DNA of 64,000 nucleotides from Dehalococcoidia bacterium (GTDB taxonomy: Bacteria; Chloroflexota; Dehalococcoidia; Dehalococcoidales; Fen-1064): positions 4,835 to 68,834 of the forward strand of contig DUFD01000045.1 in NCBI GenBank assembly GCA_011171075.1. The letters are read 5' to 3'. Positions 6,389 to 51,466 of the stretch are shown in pieces. Within the stretch, counting starts at the first letter, position 1; each line of letters opens with the position of its first letter. The translations under genes and the position numbers were made by a program. A model generated the notes under the pieces. The model saw nothing but the letters and a program-made list of their open reading frames with translations. It had not been told where the DNA came from and made no database searches.

Positions 6389-7459
6389 ATGAAGACAAGA
6401 ATGACCGAGCTATTTGGAATAAAATATCCCATCATGATAGCCGGGATGAACTGGCTAACCACCCCGAAACTGGTTGCAGCCGTCTCTAATGCCGGTGGCC
6501 TCGGTGTCTTAGCCGGGAATCACCAGACCCCCGACGGATTAAGAGAGGCGATTAAAGAAATCAGGGAGCTAACCGATAAACCATTCGGCATCAACCTCAC
6601 CCTGGGAATCGGCTCCGCCCAGCGTGTACCGGTAGTGCTAGAGGAGAAGGTACCGGTATTGAACTACGCACTGGGCAGACCCCCGGAGATTGGTCCTTTA
6701 ATTGAGGCAGTCCATGGTTACGGGGGCAAGGTTATCGGCACGATAGCCATGCTCAGGCACGCTCTTCGCTCCGAGCAGCTTGGGGCTGATGCGCTTATTA
6801 TCACCGGGTATGAAGCCGCTTCTCATTCTGGAAATGTTGGTGCCCTGGTGCTGGTACCCACCATCGCTGAGGCGGTGAAAGTGCCCTGCATCGGGGCCGG
6901 CGGCTACGCGGATGGTCGTGGCCTAGCGGCAGCCCTGGCCCTGGGTGCTGAGGGCATATCTATGGGTAGCCGTCTGGCGGCCACTCAGGAGGCCGAAGTA
7001 TCCGATGCTGTCAAGCAGACCTGGGTCAACGCCAGTGAAGAAGATACCGTTATCGACCCGGCCTTCGACGGCATCAACTGCCGGGTGCTGAGGAACAAGG
7101 CCGCCGAAGACCTGCTTCAGAAGAAAGCCTTCCCGCTGTTTGATTCCATCTCAGCGGGCCTGCACATGAAGAAAACACTGAACATGTCCTGGGGAGAGTT
7201 TCTCCGTACTGCCAATAATATGCGGAAACAGCCGTCAGGTGTCGGGGGTGGTCAGCGCGGCCTGGCTTCATCAATGCGTTTCGCCGTTGGCAGCCGGCTT
7301 TTCAGGGTAGCCCTGGAGGACCCCGTGAACGGTATCCTGATGATGGGACAGACTGCCGGCAGGATAAAAGATATCCCCACGGTAGCCGAGGTCATTGAGC
7401 GTACTGTTAAGGAAGCCGAAGAGATACAGAAAACGATGGCCAATCAGTTCGCCAACTGA
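6389..7459 (+). CDS. nitronate monooxygenase / FabK-like FMN oxidoreductase (paralogue)
   Basis: 356 aa. 'YPIMIAGMNW' and 'GAGGYADGRGLAAALALGAEGISMGSR'. Tandem paralogue of the preceding gene. Confidence 0.85.
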   Translation: MKTRMTELFGIKYPIMIAGMNWLTTPKLVAAVSNAGGLGVLAGNHQTPDGLREAIKEIRELTDKPFGINLTLGIGSAQRVPVVLEEKVPVLNYALGRPPEIGPLIEAVHGYGGKVIGTIAMLRHALRSEQLGADALIITGYEAASHSGNVGALVLVPTIAEAVKVPCIGAGGYADGRGLAAALALGAEGISMGSRLAATQEAEVSDAVKQTWVNASEEDTVIDPAFDGINCRVLRNKAAEDLLQKKAFPLFDSISAGLHMKKTLNMSWGEFLRTANNMRKQPSGVGGGQRGLASSMRFAVGSRLFRVALEDPVNGILMMGQTAGRIKDIPTVAEVIERTVKEAEEIQKTMANQFAN

Positions 7460-39309: not shown

Positions 39310-40629
39310 ATGACATCTATTTGTTTTGCAGGACCGTACAAGCCCATCATGTGCGGAATAGGTGATTACACGGAGTTCCTCACCCGAAAAAGCCCTGGCG
39401 CCAGGTGGGGGGTACTGTCCTTCAATCTGAGTGCATATGGCGGACCACTGGTCAGCAATGGTACGCCACAGAAAGGTCCGGTCTGGTACGGCATACCCGA
39501 CCGGCACAGCTACGGCTCTGCAGTTATTCAGCAGGGACTTGATATACTCGGCGTAGATACACGGGACTCCGTTGTCTGGTTTCAACACGAATTCGGTATC
39601 TGGCCACACAATGCGCTGTTCGTTAACATGCTTAAGGGGCTGGATATACCGGCGGTGGTAACTTTTCATACCCTGCACTTCCAGAGTACTGAGACCAGGT
39701 ACGGACTACGCAAGGAACAATTTGACTTTCTCCGTACGCTGCTACCCTATGTTGATGGCATTACCGTCTTCAGCCGGGGAGTATATGGTGCGGTAGCCGC
39801 CGCGTTCCCTGAATATATCGATAAGATACACGTCGTCAAGCACGGCATACACCACTATCCGGAGGTAAGCCGCCTGGCACGCCGCGAAGCCAAGGAAAAA
39901 TTGAACGACTATCTGCTCTACGATTCTGACCTTGACTCAAGAACCAGAGAACGACTGCACGAGCAGCGTATTCTCCTTGACCCGGAAACAATCGTTCTCG
40001 GTCAAACGGGCTTCCTCTCGCCGGCAAAAGGCTCGGAACTTCTCTACACTGTCAGGAATAGCCTTGATAGAGTAGTCCCACAAAAAAGAATAGCGGCACT
40101 GCGGATTGGTACCCCCCGTGATAAATACCAGGAAGAATATGCCGCCCGACTACAAAAAGCGCAGGATGGCAAGCCTAACTTCCTGTTGAAAGTCTGGCTG
40201 CCTCAGGCGATGTTGCCGGTAGCCCAGCGTGCTTTTGATATGAATTTCTACTGGCCGGTGGAATGTACTCAGAGCGGCGTCCTTGCCCACGCATTAGGCG
40301 CCGGAGCTGTTATCGCCAGTCGCGACATCGAGGGCGTCGGTGAGACCCTGAAAGACGCTGGGGCTATCATTGATACCGATTTAGCCAGGCTAATGGTTAA
40401 AATGAAAAGCCTCATAATAAACCCGGAACTCTCCGAAGACATTTCGGAAAAAGCCCTGGACTATGCTGAGGAATACTCCTGGGATAATCAAGTCCGGCGG
40501 CATTATGAACTGTCCCAGCAAATTCTCCAACGACAGCCGGTGCTATCGGAATCAGGCACATCAGAAGACTACCGTCATCTCCAATCCTTTCGGGCTACGG
40601 TGGAACAGGGTACGGTAGGGCACCATTAG
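39310..40629 (+). CDS. GT-B fold glycosyltransferase (GT4-like)
   Basis: 439 aa. Layout and the C-terminal half resemble GT4/GT1-type retaining glycosyltransferases. Adjacent to GH130. Confidence 0.65.
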   Translation: MTSICFAGPYKPIMCGIGDYTEFLTRKSPGARWGVLSFNLSAYGGPLVSNGTPQKGPVWYGIPDRHSYGSAVIQQGLDILGVDTRDSVVWFQHEFGIWPHNALFVNMLKGLDIPAVVTFHTLHFQSTETRYGLRKEQFDFLRTLLPYVDGITVFSRGVYGAVAAAFPEYIDKIHVVKHGIHHYPEVSRLARREAKEKLNDYLLYDSDLDSRTRERLHEQRILLDPETIVLGQTGFLSPAKGSELLYTVRNSLDRVVPQKRIAALRIGTPRDKYQEEYAARLQKAQDGKPNFLLKVWLPQAMLPVAQRAFDMNFYWPVECTQSGVLAHALGAGAVIASRDIEGVGETLKDAGAIIDTDLARLMVKMKSLIINPELSEDISEKALDYAEEYSWDNQVRRHYELSQQILQRQPVLSESGTSEDYRHLQSFRATVEQGTVGHH

Positions 40630-40738
40630 GTAGCGGAAAGCCGAACTGCAAGGATTGCTCTCCGATTGTCTACACCCCACGTTTAACACAGGATGGACTC
40701 AATGTGGAGAGATTGGAGATTCTGCCTATTGTACACTA

Positions 40739-40782
40739 TGGTGGGCGGTACTGGATTTGAACCAGTGACCTCTGCGATGATA
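40739..40782 (-). other. orphan tRNA 3' half (att-like remnant), isotype undetermined
   Basis: The reverse complement reads '...CGCAGAGGTC-ACTGG-TTCAAAT-CCAGT-ACCGCCC-A-CCA': a perfect T-arm, acceptor 3' strand, discriminator and CCA. No matching 5' half (GGGCGGT...) lies upstream. Confidence 0.6.
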
Positions 40783-40963
40783 TGACATTGGTTTTCTAAG
40801 GAACCGGTAATTAACCGGTTGTGATTGTTCGGATTTTTCATAAATTCACCTCCAATAATCTATCTGAAGTATACATTAATTCAAAACAGGTATGATAATA
40901 CCCATTATTTTTCGATATATCCAAAATCATAGAGCCACCTAAGAGCTTAGTTTTTAAAATTAA

Positions 40964-41206
40964 GTGATGGATATTGCCAAGTATTTAAAACATCTCATAT
41001 ATCGTAAAGAGAGACAGGGTACAGCAGCTCCACCACAATATCAAATTGCACAATATAAGCAATTGTTGGACGGGGAGATTGAGCAGAATCAGTCTCTTCC
41101 TGAAGCAGTATTTGTTTGGTTGGTAAATAAACAAAATACTCAAGTTAATGTAGTTAAGTTTCGATATACAGCGGCTTCGCCATACTATCTGTTGAAGTCA
41201 TTTTGA
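40964..41206 (+). CDS. hypothetical small protein in AT-rich island remnant
   Basis: 80-aa ORF. Its stop codon overlaps the first unit of the tandem-repeat array. No recognisable motif. Confidence 0.3.
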   Translation: MMDIAKYLKHLIYRKERQGTAAPPQYQIAQYKQLLDGEIEQNQSLPEAVFVWLVNKQNTQVNVVKFRYTAASPYYLLKSF

Positions 41207-41800
41207 GAGTAACCATAGACAGCCCCTCTTGAATCCGTATTGAAGGTGCAGAACACATCCTCTAGAAGCTGCTGTGAGGTACTATCGTTAACCATTATAG
41301 AAGCTGTTTCGAAGGTACAGAAGTCATTGCTCTATGAAGGTATTTGTGTGGGTTCGGAGATTATGTTCTGTAACCTGCCTTGCGAAGGCGTTTCTATGGA
41401 CTCTGCAACCCTGCTCTGCGACTATACCCTGCGAAAGTAAATCGAGAGTGCAGAAGGTATTACTCAGCAAACTCAATGTGAGAGTACCAGAAGTTAGTGC
41501 TCTGCGAAGTCAAATTGAGAGTACTGAAAGTAGTACTCTATAAAAGTTAATCGAGAGTGCAGAAAGTATTACTCAGCAAACTCAATGTGAGAGTACCAGA
41601 CGGTAGTTCTTTGTGAAAGCAAAATGAGAGTGTAGAAAGTAATACTTTTCAAACTTGATTTGAGAGTAACAGAAAACATTCCCCTGCGAAAGGTAATTCG
41701 AGAGTAACAGAAGGTGTCAACGCAGGCGTAATTTGAGAACGCTGAAGGTGACAATCTTGTAGAACCAGCGAAGGTGCAGCCTTTCAAATTTAACCAGTAC
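41204..41800. repeat. tandem array of about 16 degenerate ~36-nt units (GAGAGT-phased), with a ~109-nt higher-order repeat
   Basis: 'GAGAGT' recurs at 41444, 41480, 41517, 41553, 41589, 41626, 41662 and 41700 ('GAGAAC' at 41735), spaced 35-38 nt. 41440-41491 and 41549-41600 match at 51 of 52 nt. Several units carry an internal inverted repeat, e.g. 'AGAGTACT-GAAAGT-AGTACTCT'. Confidence 0.85.
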
Positions 41801-41889
41801 AAGAGAGGTTAATCGGGGACGGAGTAGGCAACTACACAGAAAGATGAAATGTTGGATAGCGATAATTCACCGAAAGCAACGAAAAAATT

Positions 41890-42015
41890 ATTAGCTGTTA
41901 ACCGTTAGGTTGTAGGTTCGAGTCCTAGGCGGGGAGCCAGGCTCAGATGTGGGGGGGCACGTAGGTTAATACACAGAACTCTTAAGCTGACATTCGGCCA
42001 TAGTGTTGACCAACT
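41890..42015 (+). repeat. junction module copy L (tRNA-like 3' half plus conserved flank)
   Basis: 'ATTAGCT...GGTTCGAGTCC...GCCA...TTAAGCTGACATTCG...TTGACCAACT'. Recurs inverted at 50831-50940 and, shortened, at 63343-63406. Confidence 0.7.
41895..41939 (+). other. orphan tRNA 3' half, tRNA-Asn-like (att-like remnant)
   Basis: 'CTGTTAA-CCGTT-AGGTT-GTAGG-TTCGAGT-CCTAG-GCGGGGA-G-CCA'. A GTT anticodon-loop-like start, T-loop, A72/G73 and CCA resemble bacterial tRNA-Asn. There is one T-stem mismatch and no 5' half upstream. Confidence 0.5.
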
Positions 42016-42101
42016 GTTCGAATTTCTAGTTTGGCGGGTTTTTAGAGACATTCAGCCAAGAAAGATAATATTACCTCACGCGATGAGGTTGTGGTATCTA
42101 T

Positions 42102-42128
42102 TTAAGCCCCCAGTATCTCCTTGTGCCC
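42102..42128 (-). repeat. orphan copy of the kinase-gene 3' terminus (R1-A; reads GHKEILGA-stop)
   Basis: 42106-42127 is a 22-nt exact match to 43327-43348. The reading frame and a stop (TAA) are preserved. Lies just downstream of the beta-lactamase-like gene. Confidence 0.8.
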
Positions 42129-42148
42129 GACTAAACAATGGACTCTAG

Positions 42149-43288
42149 TCAGAGAGCAGCATACAGGGCACCAATGATGGGAACGATGCGTAGATTCGGA
42201 GTACTGCCCATCTTATTCATCACGTAAGAACAACTGAGTTTGGCATCGATGTCCATTACCACCACTGAACCACCGTATCCACCCCAGTATAAAATCCGAG
42301 GATTCGGACCAATCGGTATCTCCTTGCTAGTAAGTCCAAAACCGAGGCCAAACCTCACGGGTGATGGCCAGGACTGGGGTTGTCCATAGTACTGCTCTTC
42401 TAGTGCTTTCTCAATGGTCGGCAAACCTAATAGATGGACATCATCAAGTTCGCCCCCACAGGCGACAGCAGCTGATATACGAGCGACTGAACGAGCGTTT
42501 CCATGTCCATTACCTGCCGGAATCTCGGCAGCTCTGAATGCTCTGTCCCTCGCATTCAGGGCTGAAAAGAAGGGGAAGTTCATGGCTCGATACAACACTG
42601 AATCTGGTGGAATGTACGAAGGGTCGCCAGGTTTGTACTCAGGTGGCGGAATCATCTCGCCTACTCTAGGTTCATGTTCTTCCGGAAGACCAATATGGAA
42701 ATCGGCTGAAAGTGGCGCGGCCACTTCCCCCTGAAAGAATGTACCGAGTGTGTTTCCTGTAATACGACGCACCAGCTCTCCTACAAGAAAACCCGAGGTC
42801 AAAGCATGGTATTCCCATTCTTTTCCTGGCTCCCACCAGGGTTTCTCTGCAGCCAGTAATGAGACCACCTTATCCCAATCATACAGTGTTTCCATAGGAA
42901 CAGGCATGTCGAGTGCGGGTAGACCGGCCGTGTGGCTCATCAGGTACCGAACTGGCATGGTTTCTTTACCTGCTTGTGCAAACTCAGGCCAATACTTGGC
43001 AACTGGTGCATCAGGGTCAAGCAAGCCGCGGTCAATAAGCATCAGTGCACAGATTGTTGTCATCACTTTCGTGGTCGAGAAGACACATACAATAGTATCC
43101 TTCTCCCACGGGCGCGTCTGGGCTTCATCAGCGTAACCGCCCCAGATATCGACTACGGACTTTCCTTCTATCGTAGCTGCGAATGATGCACCAACCTCCA
43201 GACCCTGCTCGAAGTTGTTGGCAAACGCGTCCTTAACTGGTGAAAACCTGTCGTCGCAATGCCCATAAATCTCAACTGTACCGGCCAT
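42149..43288 (-). CDS. serine hydrolase, beta-lactamase/esterase (class C-like) family
   Basis: 379 aa. 'FSTTKV' S-x-x-K motif, with length and layout typical of the EstB/AmpC-like family. Confidence 0.85.
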   Translation of the reverse strand: MAGTVEIYGHCDDRFSPVKDAFANNFEQGLEVGASFAATIEGKSVVDIWGGYADEAQTRPWEKDTIVCVFSTTKVMTTICALMLIDRGLLDPDAPVAKYWPEFAQAGKETMPVRYLMSHTAGLPALDMPVPMETLYDWDKVVSLLAAEKPWWEPGKEWEYHALTSGFLVGELVRRITGNTLGTFFQGEVAAPLSADFHIGLPEEHEPRVGEMIPPPEYKPGDPSYIPPDSVLYRAMNFPFFSALNARDRAFRAAEIPAGNGHGNARSVARISAAVACGGELDDVHLLGLPTIEKALEEQYYGQPQSWPSPVRFGLGFGLTSKEIPIGPNPRILYWGGYGGSVVVMDIDAKLSCSYVMNKMGSTPNLRIVPIIGALYAAL

Positions 43289-43322: not shown

Positions 43323-46300
43323 CTACGCCCCCAGTATCTCCTTGTGCCTCAGTGCCCTCTCCAGTGAGGGCTGCATCTTCATCTCGCGGAACTCATTGAT
43401 GGCGAAATTAAGGTGCTCTAATGCTTCTGGCTTTTCATCCGGGTAGTGCTCCAGGAGAAGCTCGGCGAGCTGGAGCCGGGTGAGGGCTAGCTCAGGGCGG
43501 AACTTGATATTCGTAGCGACCTCCAGGGCATCAGCGTAGTATTTACGGGCTTCTTCGTATCTTTCCAGGAGCGCGCACGCTCCACCCAGGTGGCGGTCTA
43601 CACACGTCGGCCAATAGTAACCGGTCATATGTGGCGTTTTCCCTGCAAGTTGGTTTAGTAAGGCTTCGGCTGCTTTTTTATGCCGAACCAGTACAGCTAC
43701 TTCAAGCCAGATTGTATCAGTCCAGTAGAAAGTGTAATCGTCAACGGTGCCAATAAACCGACGTCCACCAAGAAACTCATTCAATATGGTGATTGCTTCA
43801 TCGTGCCGGTTAAGATGTGCCAGACAGAGGGTTCCGATATGGGAGTTGAATTCATTGGGTAACATGGTTTGAAGCATGGAATCGGACATTCCCAGCAATA
43901 CTCCAGCCCTGAATCTGGAGAAATTATACGATACTCTTGTAAATCGTTGCAGACCCCACTCTTCACCACGTACTTGGATTTCATCCGCTAATTGCACAGC
44001 CTCATCTAACCGGCCGTCCAGAGTTCTCAGCATAGCCCGAAACTGCAAGGATTGAATTAAGAAGTTGGTCTGCCCACTACGCTCTGCGAATTCTCTATGC
44101 TTACGCAAGATTTCCTCACATCGCTCGCGTTGCCCGTACTCGAGAAAAGTGATACCGAGTACCGCGAGCCCGCCCACAATCGCTCGCGTGTCCACACCGG
44201 CGCGAGAGCGCATCGAAAGCTCCTTAGTTACCTGTAGTCGCTGCTCAGTATATTGCGGTACAGTCGTATAGATTAACCACAAAGGTACCAACATCCAAAA
44301 GGTCTCATCATCTCCTAGCTTATGTATCCGGTCTATAGCTTGATCCATTAACTGAAATCCCGTTCTGGGATGCCCTGTGGAGTACCTCACCAGACCTAGA
44401 AACATATCTGCCACAGCCCTTTCCCTCGTACCCTCTTGGGCATATAGGTCAGCACGACTCGCCCACTCCATACCCTCCCCAGAACCAAAAGCTCCTACCG
44501 TACCATGTCGCCAGTAGACGAGTGCGGGTAGAGCACGTTCACAGGCCCGTGCTGCACGGTTCTCATCACTAATTCCCTCGGCCAGCGAAAAGGCTTCCTG
44601 AAGTTCAGCATCCAGAGCACGTCGTGATTCGCCTGCATTAACTAAGGTGTCGCTAAGAGTCAGAAGGATGTCACACCGCTTTGCCTTATCCTCCGGATTC
44701 AGTACCTCCTGCACCTTGAGTGCCTGCTCCAGCAATCGTATCGCTTCACCATAAGCATAGACACTACTTGCTTTTTCGGCTGCCATCTCACCGTATGAGA
44801 CCGCCTTAGCCAATCCTTCAGTATCGGGTGAATACGAAAAGTGCTCAGCCAGCTCAGCGGCATGCTCTTCAAGACGCTTTCCGTAAACCTCTTCTAAAGC
44901 CTTTCCTACCTGTTGGTGAAGTCGTATCCGCCGTGGAGCAATTATCTCTTCGTAGAGGGTCTGACGGAAGAAGGCATGGGTAAAGCGGTAGGTCACGGCA
45001 GCCCCTACAGTAGAACGTTCCTCTACTACGGCAGCCGCTTTCGCTTCCTCTAAGGCAACAAATAACTCATCATCAGATATATCGGCTACTTTTTGTAAGA
45101 CAGCTAACTGGAACTCCCGGCCGATGACAGAGGCAATGCTCAATATTCGGTTACACTCCTGACTTAGACCCGAGAGACGCTTACCGACAACATCACGCAG
45201 TCCCTCGGGGATGCTCATTTCAAGTTGTGTGGCCTTCCATTGCCCCCCTTCCCGATTGATGAGACCTTCTTCAACCAGGTAGCGCACCACCTCCTGCACA
45301 AAGAGAGGATTGCCCTCGGTCTGGCGGTGCACCGCCTCGGCTAGGCCCCAGGGGACATCCTGCCTGGTAATACTCTCCAGCATCCTTCTGACCTCATCGG
45401 CATTGAGACCCCGCAGCAGGACACGGTCGAAGGTAGCAACCCGACGTAGCTCGGCTAAGGATGCTGATAAGGGATGGGTACGGTCTACTTCAACATCACG
45501 GTAAGTTCCTACTATCATGAGCCTTGCTCCACTAAGGTTACGTGAGACGTGAGTCAGCATCTCCAGCGTACCCTTGTCGGAGTCGTGCAGATCCTCTAAT
45601 ACAATCAGCAGCGGCTGGACTTTGGCAGCGCTGGTGAGGAAACTGGTGACGGCCTGCATCAGCCGGTAGCGCTCTTCCTCCGGGCTCTCAGACGGCTTTG
45701 GCTCTACCTTGAGCTTCTCCCTTACCTCGGAGACAATACGGGCAACATCAGCTGCCCCGGTACCAAGCTCCTTCCTCAGGTCTCTGGTTTCTCTTGTCAT
45801 GACATAGGAGCGCATCGCTTCGACAAAGGCTAGATATGGTAGCGACAGAGACCCTTCCTCATAGCAGTGGCCGACAAGGGTCTTGCCGCCCCTCAGCGTC
45901 ACGTAAGTGGACAGTTGCTCACATAAGGCGGTCTTGCCGATACCCGGCTCTCCAACTACCATCATGAGGGCACCCTGTCCCGACATGGCCCCGTCAAAGG
46001 CCGCCTGTAGCTGTTTTTGCTCCGGTTCACGGCCAACGAAGACGCGGCGGTAGAGGGGACTCTCCGGGGCAGCCGCCACCTGTGACACCGACTCAGTGAC
46101 CTTTCCCTGTTCGATGGATTCCAGAGCTTTGAGGATATCCCCAGCGGAGTCAGGACGTTTATCCGGGTCTTTCTCCAGTAGCTGCAGGATGAGCACCTCT
46201 AGTCCCGGTGGCAGGTCAGCCCGGTGCCAGGTAGGTGATACCACCGAGGTGTTGATATGCTGTCCGATAATAGCCACCGAGTCATCCCCGATAAAGGGTG

Positions 46301-47135
46301 GTCTGCCGGTAACCATCTCATAAAGCATCGCTCCCAGTGAGTAGAGGTCGGCCTTGGGTGTTATCTTGCCACCCATAGCCTGCTCCGGTGGCATGTAGGA
46401 CACCGTGCCCACCATCATGCCTTCCTGGGTTAATCGGGAGAGGTCAACCGCTACCGCCAGGCCGAAGTCGCCTATCTTGGCAGTTCCGTCGGTACTCAGC
46501 CACACATTGCCCGGTTTCAGGTCGCGGTGGATGATTCCCTTAGCGTGGGCGAACTCCAGTCCTTGACAGACAGACTTGGTGATGCCGATAGCCTGTTCTA
46601 GGGGTAATCGGTGCTCGGATGCCTTCTCGATAAGCCCCTCGACATCGCCACCTGACATCAGAGGCAAGACAATGTAGGGCTGGCCTTCGTGGTCACCGAA
46701 GTCGTAGACAGTGACGATATTCGGGTGGTCACCGAGCCTTCCCATGGCCTGGGCTTCACGGGTAATGCGTGTCCTGGCTTCTTCATCGAGCTTCTCGGTC
46801 TTAATCAGGGCAAAGGCGACGTCTCGGTCGAGCGTGTTGTCATGTGCGAGGTAGACCTTCTTCTTACCGCCTTCGCCGAGCAGTTTCTTCACATGGTAGC
46901 GGCCGCCAGCAAAGGAGGTGGGTTCGGGGGAGGGGAGTGCTTCAGGAGTTGGTTCGGGTACTTCTTCAGTTAGGGAGTAACCACATTCATCACAGAATCT
47001 GCCACCTTGAGGATTAGTGTGTCCACATTGTGGACAAATAAGCTCTGCCTGGACTGGTTCTTGGAGTGATTTACCACATTCTAGGCAGAACTTAGCTCCA
47101 TCGCGATTCTCATATCGGCAATCTGGGCATTTCAC
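43323..47135 (-). CDS. double-zinc-ribbon / Ser-Thr protein kinase / STAND (AAA_16-like) ATPase / TPR multidomain protein
   Basis: 1270 aa with a GTG start. 'CPDC...CLEC' and 'CPQC...CDEC', kinase 'HRDLKPGN' and 'DFGLA', Walker A 'GEPGIGKT', Walker B-like 'LLIVLEDLHDSD', and a long helical/TPR C-terminus. Confidence 0.9.
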   Translation of the reverse strand: MKCPDCRYENRDGAKFCLECGKSLQEPVQAELICPQCGHTNPQGGRFCDECGYSLTEEVPEPTPEALPSPEPTSFAGGRYHVKKLLGEGGKKKVYLAHDNTLDRDVAFALIKTEKLDEEARTRITREAQAMGRLGDHPNIVTVYDFGDHEGQPYIVLPLMSGGDVEGLIEKASEHRLPLEQAIGITKSVCQGLEFAHAKGIIHRDLKPGNVWLSTDGTAKIGDFGLAVAVDLSRLTQEGMMVGTVSYMPPEQAMGGKITPKADLYSLGAMLYEMVTGRPPFIGDDSVAIIGQHINTSVVSPTWHRADLPPGLEVLILQLLEKDPDKRPDSAGDILKALESIEQGKVTESVSQVAAAPESPLYRRVFVGREPEQKQLQAAFDGAMSGQGALMMVVGEPGIGKTALCEQLSTYVTLRGGKTLVGHCYEEGSLSLPYLAFVEAMRSYVMTRETRDLRKELGTGAADVARIVSEVREKLKVEPKPSESPEEERYRLMQAVTSFLTSAAKVQPLLIVLEDLHDSDKGTLEMLTHVSRNLSGARLMIVGTYRDVEVDRTHPLSASLAELRRVATFDRVLLRGLNADEVRRMLESITRQDVPWGLAEAVHRQTEGNPLFVQEVVRYLVEEGLINREGGQWKATQLEMSIPEGLRDVVGKRLSGLSQECNRILSIASVIGREFQLAVLQKVADISDDELFVALEEAKAAAVVEERSTVGAAVTYRFTHAFFRQTLYEEIIAPRRIRLHQQVGKALEEVYGKRLEEHAAELAEHFSYSPDTEGLAKAVSYGEMAAEKASSVYAYGEAIRLLEQALKVQEVLNPEDKAKRCDILLTLSDTLVNAGESRRALDAELQEAFSLAEGISDENRAARACERALPALVYWRHGTVGAFGSGEGMEWASRADLYAQEGTRERAVADMFLGLVRYSTGHPRTGFQLMDQAIDRIHKLGDDETFWMLVPLWLIYTTVPQYTEQRLQVTKELSMRSRAGVDTRAIVGGLAVLGITFLEYGQRERCEEILRKHREFAERSGQTNFLIQSLQFRAMLRTLDGRLDEAVQLADEIQVRGEEWGLQRFTRVSYNFSRFRAGVLLGMSDSMLQTMLPNEFNSHIGTLCLAHLNRHDEAITILNEFLGGRRFIGTVDDYTFYWTDTIWLEVAVLVRHKKAAEALLNQLAGKTPHMTGYYWPTCVDRHLGGACALLERYEEARKYYADALEVATNIKFRPELALTRLQLAELLLEHYPDEKPEALEHLNFAINEFREMKMQPSLERALRHKEILGA

Positions 47136-48635: not shown

Positions 48636-49208
48636 TTAAGTCTCACTATTATCAGCTCTAGCATCGTTGTTTCTCGACTCAAGGTTCTGCATTCTTTCAA
48701 AGGTCTCTTGTGTGAATGCCGCCAGGCCTTTTTCAGCTTCTCTTATTAGCTTTTCCACTTCTTCCCGAGCGGTAACGTCCCAAAAGTCACGTTCTTTGGC
48801 CTCAGCAAGCCAGCGGTTTATCTTCCCCAGGTCACCCTCCAGTTCCTGCACTTCTTCAAAATTAAACTCTTGATGCTGGCGCTCTCGCTCTATATGGCGT
48901 AGCATCTTGTGACATTCCTTGATTATCTCAGCGTATTCTCTATCTCTCTCCTGTTGAAACCTCGTTATCGCCCGCTTCTCCTGCGCCTCGGTGAAGTCGG
49001 TTACTGAGTATAGGTTCGCTATGCCCTCCAGTTCCTCCACAGATTGATATATGTCCTTGATTTTTGTCGCAAACGGTTCTGCGTTTGGTATGAGCCAGCC
49101 TGCCCCCTCCATAGAAAGGGCTCCGAGCTTCTTTAACTGCCTCCAGATAAAAACTCTCTTTCGAGATGGTTCTGCCGGGAGCCAGTAGGTGAACAATAGC
49201 CAATCCAT
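48636..49208 (-). CDS. ChrB N-terminal-domain-like (PaaX-like) protein
   Basis: 190 aa. 'WLLFTYWLPAEPSRKRVFIWRQLKKLGALSMEGAGWLIPN' matches the ChrB_N pattern, followed by a coiled-coil-like tail. Confidence 0.55.
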   Translation of the reverse strand: MDWLLFTYWLPAEPSRKRVFIWRQLKKLGALSMEGAGWLIPNAEPFATKIKDIYQSVEELEGIANLYSVTDFTEAQEKRAITRFQQERDREYAEIIKECHKMLRHIERERQHQEFNFEEVQELEGDLGKINRWLAEAKERDFWDVTAREEVEKLIREAEKGLAAFTQETFERMQNLESRNNDARADNSET

Positions 49209-49667: not shown

Positions 49668-49725
49668 ATTATGAATCTTTTAACATTCGGAGAACTTGAT
49701 TTACAATCTGAAGGAGGTAAGTATC

Positions 49726-50163
49726 ATGAAATGGGTTACTCGTTCTCATGTCCACGTTGACCGCGTGGCCTGTCCTTGGCTTATCAAGAGGTTCGTTGAT
49801 AATGAAGCCGAGTTTGTCTTTGCTCCCCCCAGCCAGGTAATGGCCATCGCCGAACAGACTGGGGCCATTCCTTTCGACTGCATGGGGAAGGCAGAGTTGG
49901 ACCATCACGAGGGCCGGTGCTCCTTCGAGTCAATCATCCAGAAGCATGAGCTGAAGGACAGAGCCCTTCTACGCCTTGCTGAGATAGTCCATGCCGCTGA
50001 TTCGGCCCAAGATATTGACAAGGATCCTATTGCCCGTGGCCTAGAGGCAATCGCCGTTGGTTACAGTACGCGTTATCCCAACGACGAGGAGAACCTGTCG
50101 TACCAATTCGATGTTTATGATGCTCTGTATGCTTGGTGCCGGTTGCAGGTAGCTAAGGGCTAG
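49726..50163 (+). CDS. chromate-resistance (ChrB C-terminal) domain protein
   Basis: I trimmed the start to 'MKWVTRSHVHVDRVACPWLIKRFVD', preceded by GAAGGAGG. This is the signature N-terminus of the Chrome_Resist domain. Confidence 0.7.
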   Translation: MKWVTRSHVHVDRVACPWLIKRFVDNEAEFVFAPPSQVMAIAEQTGAIPFDCMGKAELDHHEGRCSFESIIQKHELKDRALLRLAEIVHAADSAQDIDKDPIARGLEAIAVGYSTRYPNDEENLSYQFDVYDALYAWCRLQVAKG

Positions 50164-51079: not shown

Positions 51080-51466
51080 CTATGACAGCATTGTTTTAAT
51101 CTGTGCCACTTGTTCTTCAGCAGTCAGATTCAACAATGGCCTCAATCTCCTCTCAGTTACCATCGAACCACTAATTGGGTCACCTAAAGAATCAATTATT
51201 TCAATAACTTCTGGCGACAGCTTTAAAAGATTCATAATCTGCGTTACTCTGGCTTTTGAGACCTTAAGATGCCTTGCAAGGACAGCGCAAGATGCATATT
51301 CACCGTTGTCTAAAGCTCTACGCCACTCTTTTGCTAGGAAGATGGGATTCCGGTACCGTCGGTTGCCAATCTTGATGAGGTTATGGTTAGATGGGACGAC
51401 TGGTATCTCAAAGATAGCCTGAAAAGTTCTGTGTATTGACCTATGTGGGGAGCCAGCTATTTTTAC
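51080..51466 (-). pseudogene. ParB/KorB-like HTH protein remnant (open frame without a start codon)
   Basis: 128-codon open frame between two stops with no ATG/GTG/TTG until codon ~83. It encodes '...LARHLKVSKARVTQIMNLLKLSPEVIEIIDSL...ERRLRPLLNLTAEEQ', a ParB-type HTH signature. The listed + ORF 51072..51422 is its antisense shadow. Confidence 0.5.

Follow-up and report, generated by a model that had tools for sequence, protein, structure and literature searches.

What purpose a tandem array of short non-coding repeats serves, or once served, on a bacterial chromosome is the question raised by a locus in an uncultured Dehalococcoidia bacterium (assembly GCA_011171075.1, contig DUFD01000045.1, positions 4,835 to 68,834 of the forward strand; this whole stretch of 64,000 nucleotides, or 64 kb, is referred to as the window). 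At 41204-41800 the window carries an array of units of about 36 nt, phased by the hexamer GAGAGT, which an earlier note on this DNA had interpreted as a candidate partition centromere resembling sopC of the F plasmid, or as replication iterons, within the remnant of a genomic island. By examining the anatomy of the array, the transfer RNA (tRNA) fragments on either side of it, the genes of the window and the same locus in relatives, we arrive at another explanation, which we hold with about as much belief as doubt: the array would be an orphaned and decaying tandem-repeat array (a minisatellite of 36-37-nt units) in a ~1.2-1.5-kb scar of tRNA-targeted mobile DNA, without present function.

Anatomy of the array

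The core of the array (41444-41734, + strand) is formed by eight consecutive units, u1 to u8, which are supported by phased GAGAGT, by a profile hidden Markov model (HMM) of the unit, by Tandem Repeats Finder (TRF) and by pairwise identity. GAGAGT starts at 41444, 41480, 41517, 41553, 41589, 41626, 41662 and 41700 on the + strand (spacing 36-38 nt), and the units measure 36, 37, 36, 36, 37, 36, 38 and 35 nt, respectively. Nine of the 16 GAGAGT hexamers on the + strand of the window fall within the 0.6-kb array, including an isolated extra copy at 41205; three phased GAGAGTR are matched six times, against 0.00 expected from shuffled sequences; and TRF reports a period of 36 with 66-69% matches. 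The eight phased starts, the TRF period and the shuffle test thus bear out the recurrence of GAGAGT every 35-38 nt that the earlier note had described.

Each core unit has the layout GAGAGT-R-(N1-2)-WGAM-R, followed by a partly complementary 3' arm (ACTCT-like) and an A-rich linker of ~13 nt with an AAU-like end; the consensus is GAGAGT-R-(N1-2)-WGAAR-GT-A-nTACTCT-GCRAA-n-AAU-nn. The unit HMM, built on the eight units, recovers every one of them individually (E 2e-8 to 3.5e-4; 30.7, 29.2, 22.0, 29.7, 26.2, 21.1, 23.3 and 17.4 bits for u1 to u8), scores at most 11.2 bits outside the core, and beyond it detects one relic (41313-41345, E 0.03) and no other match in the window. Pairwise identity between units is 51-78%, the exception being u1 and u4 (97%). 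Conservation is unevenly distributed within the unit: GAGAGT is invariant in all eight core units, as is GA at +11/12, while the complementary 3' arm and the linker are only ~55% identical between units.

A higher-order repeat overlies these units. Two copies of a three-unit block of 109 nt occupy 41434-41651 (+ strand) and cover six of the eight core units, as seen by TRF (period 109, 2.0 copies, 86% matches, score 328), as repeat family D1 and by per-base comparison; the match of 51 in 52 nt between 41440-41491 and 41549-41600, from which this repeat had originally been noticed, is exact. The first ~57 nt of the two copies are nearly identical (2 mismatches) and the remainder is ~70% identical, a pattern that points to a recent partial duplication or conversion atop older divergence.

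The edges of the array are degenerate. On its decayed left part (41204-41443, + strand), which is recognised by periodicity, repeat families, the HMM relic and alignment, GAGAGT is kept only at 41205, with GAAGGT or GAAGGC in its place at 41242, 41311, 41336 and 41384. In these 240 nt, three or four relics of units can still be made out; unit-like pieces form repeat families D2, D3 and D5, and periodicity is weak (self-match 0.39-0.42 at lags 36, 69 and 106, against a shuffle 95th percentile of 0.386). The decayed right end (41735-41800, + strand) consists of unit u9 (GAGAAC...) and a tail with GAAGGT at 41744 and 41770, and has no significant fold. The count of about 16 units proposed previously is therefore a length-based upper bound: eight are clear, and to these can be added the degenerate ninth at 41735 and the three or four relics on the left.

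By the unit HMM, match quality peaks at the centre of the array and drops toward both edges. A homogenised centre with degenerate edges, combined with a higher-order repeat, is the usual footprint of replication slippage or unequal recombination, and structural features by which a minisatellite is recognised are found here: the higher-order repeat, the near-identical duplicate of recent date, and the contrast between a well-preserved centre and decayed edges. The array is identical in four independent metagenome assemblies and so is not an assembly artefact. Two short-read contigs from other assemblies break off at this locus: L380 ends at window position 41448, where the well-conserved part of the array starts, and L132 at the equivalent of 41996, near the right-hand tRNA fragment described below; both breakpoints are consistent with repeat-induced assembly breaks.

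As the earlier note had recognised, the array is AT-rich and non-coding, with a G+C content (GC) of 0.42 (0.39 in the core, against 0.51 for the window) and all six reading frames closed across it; its + strand is purine-rich (56%). The units abut without spacers, and the identical repeats and unique spacers of a clustered regularly interspaced short palindromic repeat (CRISPR) array are not found, again in agreement with that note.

An 80-aa open reading frame (ORF) at 40964-41206 (+ strand) does end exactly at the first unit, as had been noticed, its TGA stop (41204-41206) overlapping the first TGAGAGT, but whether it is a gene is doubtful. At 0.034, its coding score falls below the 0.16-0.33 of real genes, and its third-position GC (GC3) is 0.31; searches of 5.8 billion clusters and 1.84 billion representative proteins recover nothing but the ORF itself, and Pfam, PADLOC and PHROGs contain no family that it matches. 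The AlphaFold model reaches a predicted local distance difference test (pLDDT) score of 58 and lacks the look of a ribbon-helix-helix protein. Lacking homologue, family and a confident model, the ORF was rejected as a candidate partner protein of the array.

That the array might be a decayed coding repeat, left from the gene of a protein with 12-aa repeats, is suggested by its period (36 nt being 12 codons) and by this ORF running into the first unit. We consider this very improbable: unit lengths of 35-38 nt and the 109-nt block break the reading frame, the six frames are closed, the ORF has no homologues, and no relative carries such a gene at the locus, the 255-aa gene found at the equivalent place in contig L128 having an unrelated, non-repetitive sequence.

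Setting between two tRNA fragments

The array lies in a low-GC intergenic segment of 1,519 nt (40630-42148, GC 0.41), which also holds the 80-aa ORF and two tRNA fragments, between convergent genes: a GT4-like glycosyltransferase gene (+ strand, ending at 40629) and a beta-lactamase-family gene (bla; - strand, stop at 42149). The window contains exactly two copies of the tRNA 3'-end motif GGTTCRANTCC-N11-CCA, at 40739-40763 (- strand) and 41915-41939 (+ strand), where 0.02 occurrences are expected, and ARAGORN finds no intact tRNA in the window; the two orphan tRNA 3' parts reported earlier are thereby confirmed.

The left fragment (40739-40779, - strand) is an orphan 3' fragment of tRNA-Met(CAU) type, comprising variable loop, T-arm, acceptor strand and CCA, and its CCA end points left, away from the array. 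Viral contig L384 carries a tRNA-Met(CAU) whose 3' end is identical to it over 33 of 33 nt. On two IMG/VR viral contigs, L385 (3676-3704) and L386 (5288-5316), this tRNA-Met 3' end is again an orphan, ~14 nt upstream of a tRNA-Leu(UAA), where it looks like an att site used by phages. The right fragment (41894-41939, + strand) is a tRNA-Asn(GUU)-like 3' half that extends from the anticodon loop (CTGTTAA) to CCA, with its CCA end pointing right, likewise away from the array; the tRNA-Asn of Streptomyces phage Wakanda matches it at 93.2% identity over 44 nt. Beginning in the CUGUUAA anticodon loop, it ends in ...GGGGAGCCA, with the U1:A72 acceptor that characterises tRNA-Asn. A direct repeat of 18 nt (15/18 matches; 41824-41841, GTAGGCAACTACACAGAA, and 41961-41978, GTAGGTTAATACACAGAA) flanks the tRNA-Asn fragment and could be a chance occurrence or a duplication made by integration.

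With tyrosine integrases that target tRNA genes, an orphan 3' part of a tRNA marks the far end of the integrated element. Since both fragments face outward, the DNA between them (~1.15 kb, GC 0.39) should be derived from such an element or elements, the rest of which would have been deleted. The ssrA islands of Dehalococcoides are analogous genomic islands targeted to tRNA or transfer-messenger RNA (tmRNA) genes (PMC3146451). Several marks of an integrative-element scar are found: orphan tRNA 3' duplicates without a 5' half, deviant GC, and absence from relatives. A further mark, an integrase or recombinase gene, is lacking from the 64-kb window, and for this reason we call the scar a remnant. 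The alternative that tRNA genes were split by an insertion was rejected, as no matching 5' acceptor strands were found by eye in 40700-42300.

The corresponding locus in relatives was sought by way of the flanking genes, in 12 contig look-ups, and none of the relatives fetched carries the array. Coming from the left, similarity to relatives reaches as far as 40619; coming from the right, it reaches down to 42103 or 41996. In relatives whose glycosyltransferase is at 84%, 80% and 70% amino-acid identity, other genes follow directly on that side. On the bla side, relatives at 91%, 87%, 85% and 79% show four different downstream contents: membrane proteins and an HNH-containing island in L128-131 (91%; L128 7186-13140), with similarity to the window stopping at 42103; other sequence in L257/258 (87%); housekeeping genes in L133 (85%); and, in L381 (79%), a gene-free gap of 1.4 kb from which the array is absent. 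The right flank is shared by L132, whose bla is also at 91%, as far as this contig goes (equivalent of 41996). In the gap of L381 (~7300-7375, - strand) lies a tRNA-Thr(CGU)-like 5' half. It consists of acceptor, D-arm and anticodon loop and is broken off immediately past this loop, and ARAGORN calls no intact tRNA at this place.

Altogether, at least five different contents were encountered past the beta-lactamase-family gene (window 42100-42150) in relatives whose bla is 79-91% identical. The locus is, by this comparison, a hypervariable integration hotspot, and the array is confined to one species-level lineage among those sampled. The island-remnant context claimed by the earlier note holds up well: the tRNA fragments face outward, GC is 39-41% against 51%, and the segment is absent in the sampled relatives that run past the flanking gene.

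Folding of the units and RNA-based readings

The inverted repeat given as an example in the earlier note, AGAGTACT-GAAAGT-AGTACTCT at 41518-41539 (+ strand, in u3), is exact in sequence and the best preserved of its kind. The 5' arm AGAGTAC pairs with GTACTCT, the stem is perfect (8 bp) in u3, and the 39-nt u3 unit (41514-41552) folds as RNA at -10.7 kcal/mol (z = -3.06). The hairpin, however, is not maintained across units: the stem is good in u2, weaker in u5 and u6 and lost in u7-u9; at least seven pairs, G·U allowed, are formed in three of the eight core units (u2, u3 and u6); and with z of about -1.5 for u2 and u5, only u3 clearly beats its shuffles, five of nine units folding no better than shuffled sequence. 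In twelve aligned units there is no covariation, 70.7% of stem cells being paired as against 68.2% after shuffling of partners, a value reached by 67 of 500 shuffles. Mismatches count ten G·U on the + strand and nine A·C (G·U on the - strand), so near to parity that neither strand gives a sign of selection on an RNA stem. A mimic of an anticodon stem-loop was tried as an explanation and rejected, as loop lengths vary from 6 to 10 nt.

These results bear on the idea of a new multi-hairpin non-coding RNA (ncRNA), transcribed from the + strand as a protein sponge or scaffold, to which we give a small chance. The purine-rich loops of the hairpins in u3, u2 and u5, the purine-rich + strand and the folding of the whole region, slightly better for the + strand at z = -2.1 (- strand, z = -1.4), favour it; the missing covariation, the balance of G·U and A·C and the many units that fold like shuffles do not. 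Such an RNA would moreover be absent from the sampled relatives, and the array sits between the 3' ends of convergent genes. Rfam, a curated collection of published RNA families (4227 covariance models), gives no match at gathering score for the window and none at E<=10 for 40600-42200.

A second RNA-based reading takes the array for an orphan antitoxin of type III, like ToxI, CptI or TenpI: the + strand RNA would be cut at the A-rich AAU linker into units of ~36 nt that bind and inhibit an endoribonuclease, the toxin having been lost or acting from elsewhere in trans. With its 36-37 nt the period matches ToxI (5.5 x 36 nt; PMC3401426), the array is non-coding, an A-rich linker (CAAAUU, AAAAU or UAAU) precedes every unit, a promoter-like site lies upstream (40870-40899, + strand), and mobile DNA is a typical location of abortive-infection cargo; degenerate loci with partial toxins are known (PMC3401426), and non-identical repeats have been reported for tenpIN (PMC12283969). 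Against this stand the lack of a toxin gene or remnant next to the array, where Pfam at E<=10 is empty for the + frames of 41740-42160 and the - frames of 40620-40970, the lack of any ToxN-like ORF in the window, and the lack of a convincing terminator after the array on the + strand. The units, at 51-78% identity, also differ from the mostly perfect repeats of toxI and cptI (PMC12283969) and number 8-16 instead of the usual 2-5.5; further, there is no Rfam match at E<=10 and no strand-specific sign of selection on RNA. We regard an antitoxin as quite unlikely.

The same period of ~36 nt is that of dual-repeat tigRNAs (PMC12045711), and palindromes occur in stem-loop arrays of the tandem interspaced guide RNA (TIGR) type, which would make the units guides for a Nop-domain Tas protein. 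In the array, however, conserved hexamers 9-10 nt apart are combined with a single ~21-nt block, in place of two 8-12-nt repeats alternating with two ~9-nt spacers; a conserved UG...CCA box pattern is lacking, and no Nop or Tas protein is found among the ORFs of at least 90 aa in the window. On its anatomy and the absence of a Nop-domain gene we reject this reading as scarcely credible.

Partner genes and the centromere reading

Under the proposal of a partition centromere (sopC or parH type) or of replication iterons, the array would come from a lost or integrated plasmid- or phage-like element in which each unit bound a dimeric protein and nucleated a partition or initiation complex. Several properties of the array argue for such an origin: direct repeats in the range of 30-45 bp, an inverted repeat lying within some of them; a conserved core of ~12 nt (GAGAGTR..WGAA) beside a looser spacer, as in binding-site arrays; and AT-rich DNA within a mobile-element scar. 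In addition, the parH centromere of TP228 is made of boxes of the tetramer ACTC, and the arms in the array have GAGT/ACTC as their core.

A Pfam scan of every non-overlapping ORF of at least 90 aa in the window, however, recovered no gene for ParA, ParB, ParG, ParR or Rep, nor for an integrase, a transposase, a phage protein or a ToxN-type or Nop/Tas protein. The genes of the window are those of an ordinary chromosome: GlmS-like, AlaRS, TGT, RuvX, TldD/PmbA, MscL, a two-component system and GH130, along with the GT4-like and beta-lactamase-family genes, a Ser/Thr kinase-AAA-TPR gene, MFS, ChrB and ABC transport. Two ORFs of opposite strand (48636-49208, -; 49696-50163, +), separated by a CMD-family gene, encode the N- and C-terminal domains of ChrB. 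The kinase gene (43323-47135, - strand) encodes a protein of 1270 aa with zinc-ribbon, Ser/Thr kinase, AAA_16 and TPR domains; the kinase domain matches PADLOC PD-T4-6 and mad6 (E 5e-85), and the protein, syntenic in relatives, is probably an ordinary signalling STAND kinase.

A ParB-like helix-turn-helix (HTH) remnant, placed by the earlier note at 51080-51466, is the one piece of the window that recalls a partition gene, and the claim is sustained in part. On the - strand, at ~51080-51330, a truncated frame (...ASCAVLARHLKVSKARVTQIMNLLKLSPEVIEII..., with no start codon before an internal Met) matches Pfam HTH_ParB at E 9e-4 and 19.8 bits, below the gathering cut-off of 22.6 bits, while the + strand ORF at this spot has no family match. 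The fragment lies 9.3 kb from the array, separated from it by the bla and kinase genes, which are syntenic in relatives, and it sits in a patch of 44-45% GC (50-52 kb) that may be a second, separate scar of mobile DNA.

The array itself speaks against a centromere or an iteron set as well. The inverted repeat is intact in three of eight units and not maintained, unit identity is just 51-78% apart from the one 97% pair, and a period of 36-37 bp corresponds to 3.4-3.5 helical turns and is thus out of phase; the adjoining 80-aa ORF is an orphan whose low-confidence model is unlike a ribbon-helix-helix protein. No match to plasmid or phage DNA was obtained by blastn (11-nt words) against 72,556 plasmids and 50,697 phages. 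With no partner genes in the window, divergent units, a stem that is not maintained, a period out of helical phase and no plasmid link, the centromere or iteron function put forward by the earlier note is unlikely; we caution that an architecture resembling sopC does not on its own make a centromere.

Similar repeats in other sequences

Pattern scans were made with three phased GAGAGTR in genome and viral contigs, and with a tighter three-unit pattern in metagenome contigs. None of the ~370 loci listed by these scans (~120 each) is similar to the unit; in a comparison of every fetched locus by unit HMM and blastn, matches came solely from the organism's own contigs, and no homologous array among the matches listed is linked to partition or replication genes, an outcome that the earlier note had itself held to count against its proposal. 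A two-unit pattern that included the loop gave three chance matches in viral contigs, and the matches listed by the other scans are dominated by unrelated repeats with a period of 36 nt, a 12-aa coding repeat in L039 among them. Two long arrays of ~36-nt units with GAGAGT, at 7395-7972 of L031 (a metagenome-assembled genome of Rubritalea; 36-nt repeat) and at 34-1443 of L279 (a metagenome contig), are not homologous to the array.

Discussion

The reading that we prefer, an orphaned minisatellite in a scar of mobile DNA, can be told as a sequence of events. Integrative mobile DNA targeted to tRNA genes would have entered a Dehalococcoidia chromosome at a spot flanked by two convergent core genes. 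Deletion would then have removed the remainder of the element, together with its integrase, if it had one, and with whatever protein made use of the repeats. With the loss of this remainder the array would be left without present function and drifting, while slippage or unequal recombination may still be reshaping it. In the donor element, each unit may have been a site of sequence-specific protein binding or processing and not a stem-loop: GAGAGT(R)..WGAA is invariant while the complementary arm decays, which suggests a past sequence-specific site, and the invariant GAGAGT would be the trace of a past constraint on that site.

Several points weigh against an array that is simply decaying. An invariant GAGAGT beside an arm and linker that are ~55% identical is not a pattern that pure neutral decay predicts; column permutation gives P ~0.001 for the conservation of GAGAGT, a value biased by the units having been delimited by GAGAGT. 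Active minisatellites are usually polymorphic, and no copy-number polymorphism is seen among the four assemblies, which probably sample one population. A trans-acting partner could be encoded beyond the visible 64 kb. Finally, the genome and metagenome pattern scans did not list the array's own contig, and the matches that they list are uninformative on absence elsewhere. The invariance of GAGAGT keeps alive, as rivals, both a protein-binding DNA array and a processed RNA array.

We also see a slim chance of transcription of the array followed by cleavage at the A-rich junctions, giving ~36-nt RNAs headed by GAGAGU. Acting in trans on a protein encoded elsewhere in the genome, these would serve a ToxN-like nuclease as orphan antitoxin or decoy, or would be the guides or scaffolds of a family not yet described, and GAGAGUR..WGAA, not the stem, would be the element for protein recognition or processing. 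Should such expression and processing be the case, a repeat RNA of 36 nt with neither a toxin gene nor a Tas gene beside it would be a pointer to antitoxin or guide arrays that work in trans, which searches anchored on genes systematically overlook. As found, and as an orphaned minisatellite, the array matters little: it adds to the tandem repeats that are specific to one lineage, here at a plastic site in the genome of an uncultured Dehalococcoidia bacterium, and is useful mainly as a marker of past tRNA-targeted integration.

Comparison with known repeat systems

Centromeres such as sopC of F and those bound by ParB, ParG or ParR share with the array many direct repeats of a few tens of bp, some inverted repeats and an AT-rich non-coding setting; the array differs from them in having no adjacent parAB, units of 51-78% instead of near-identical ones, an inverted repeat that is not kept, a period of 36-37 bp as against 43 bp, and a chromosomal location. 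Replication iterons are 17-22-bp repeats in helical phase that lie beside a rep gene and an AT-rich unwinding element, and the array, with its 36-37-bp period and no Rep-family gene, has only AT-richness in common with them.

The arrays of type III antitoxins (ToxI, 5.5 x 36 nt; CptI; TenpI; antiQ) resemble the array in their tandem non-coding units of 36-37 nt, their A-rich junctions and their place in mobile or defence DNA, whereas the array is degenerate, has 8-16 units and no Rfam similarity, and is not followed by the terminator and toxin by which such loci are recognised (PMC3401426). TIGR-Tas arrays are likewise tandem and non-coding with units of ~36 nt, and those of the stem-loop subtype have palindromes; the array lacks a Tas or Nop gene, the edge- and loop-repeat layout with dual spacers, and the box C/D pattern. 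The Dehalococcoides ssrA islands (PMC3146451) likewise lie in a plasticity region of a Dehalococcoidia genome and have integration sites marked by orphan, duplicated 3' ends of a tRNA-like gene, but here ~1.2 kb separate two different tRNA fragments, and there is neither an integrase nor cargo genes.

Intergenic minisatellites of bacteria, of the variable-number tandem repeat (VNTR) or mycobacterial interspersed repetitive unit (MIRU) type, differ from the array in some respects: the array shows no copy-number polymorphism in four assemblies and no dispersed copies in 64 kb, contains one invariant hexamer, and lies in a mobile-DNA scar and not within an operon. What they have in common with it is a series of head-to-tail non-coding units of tens of nt with higher-order duplication, no dedicated partner gene, presence in a single lineage, and a homogenised centre between degenerate edges.

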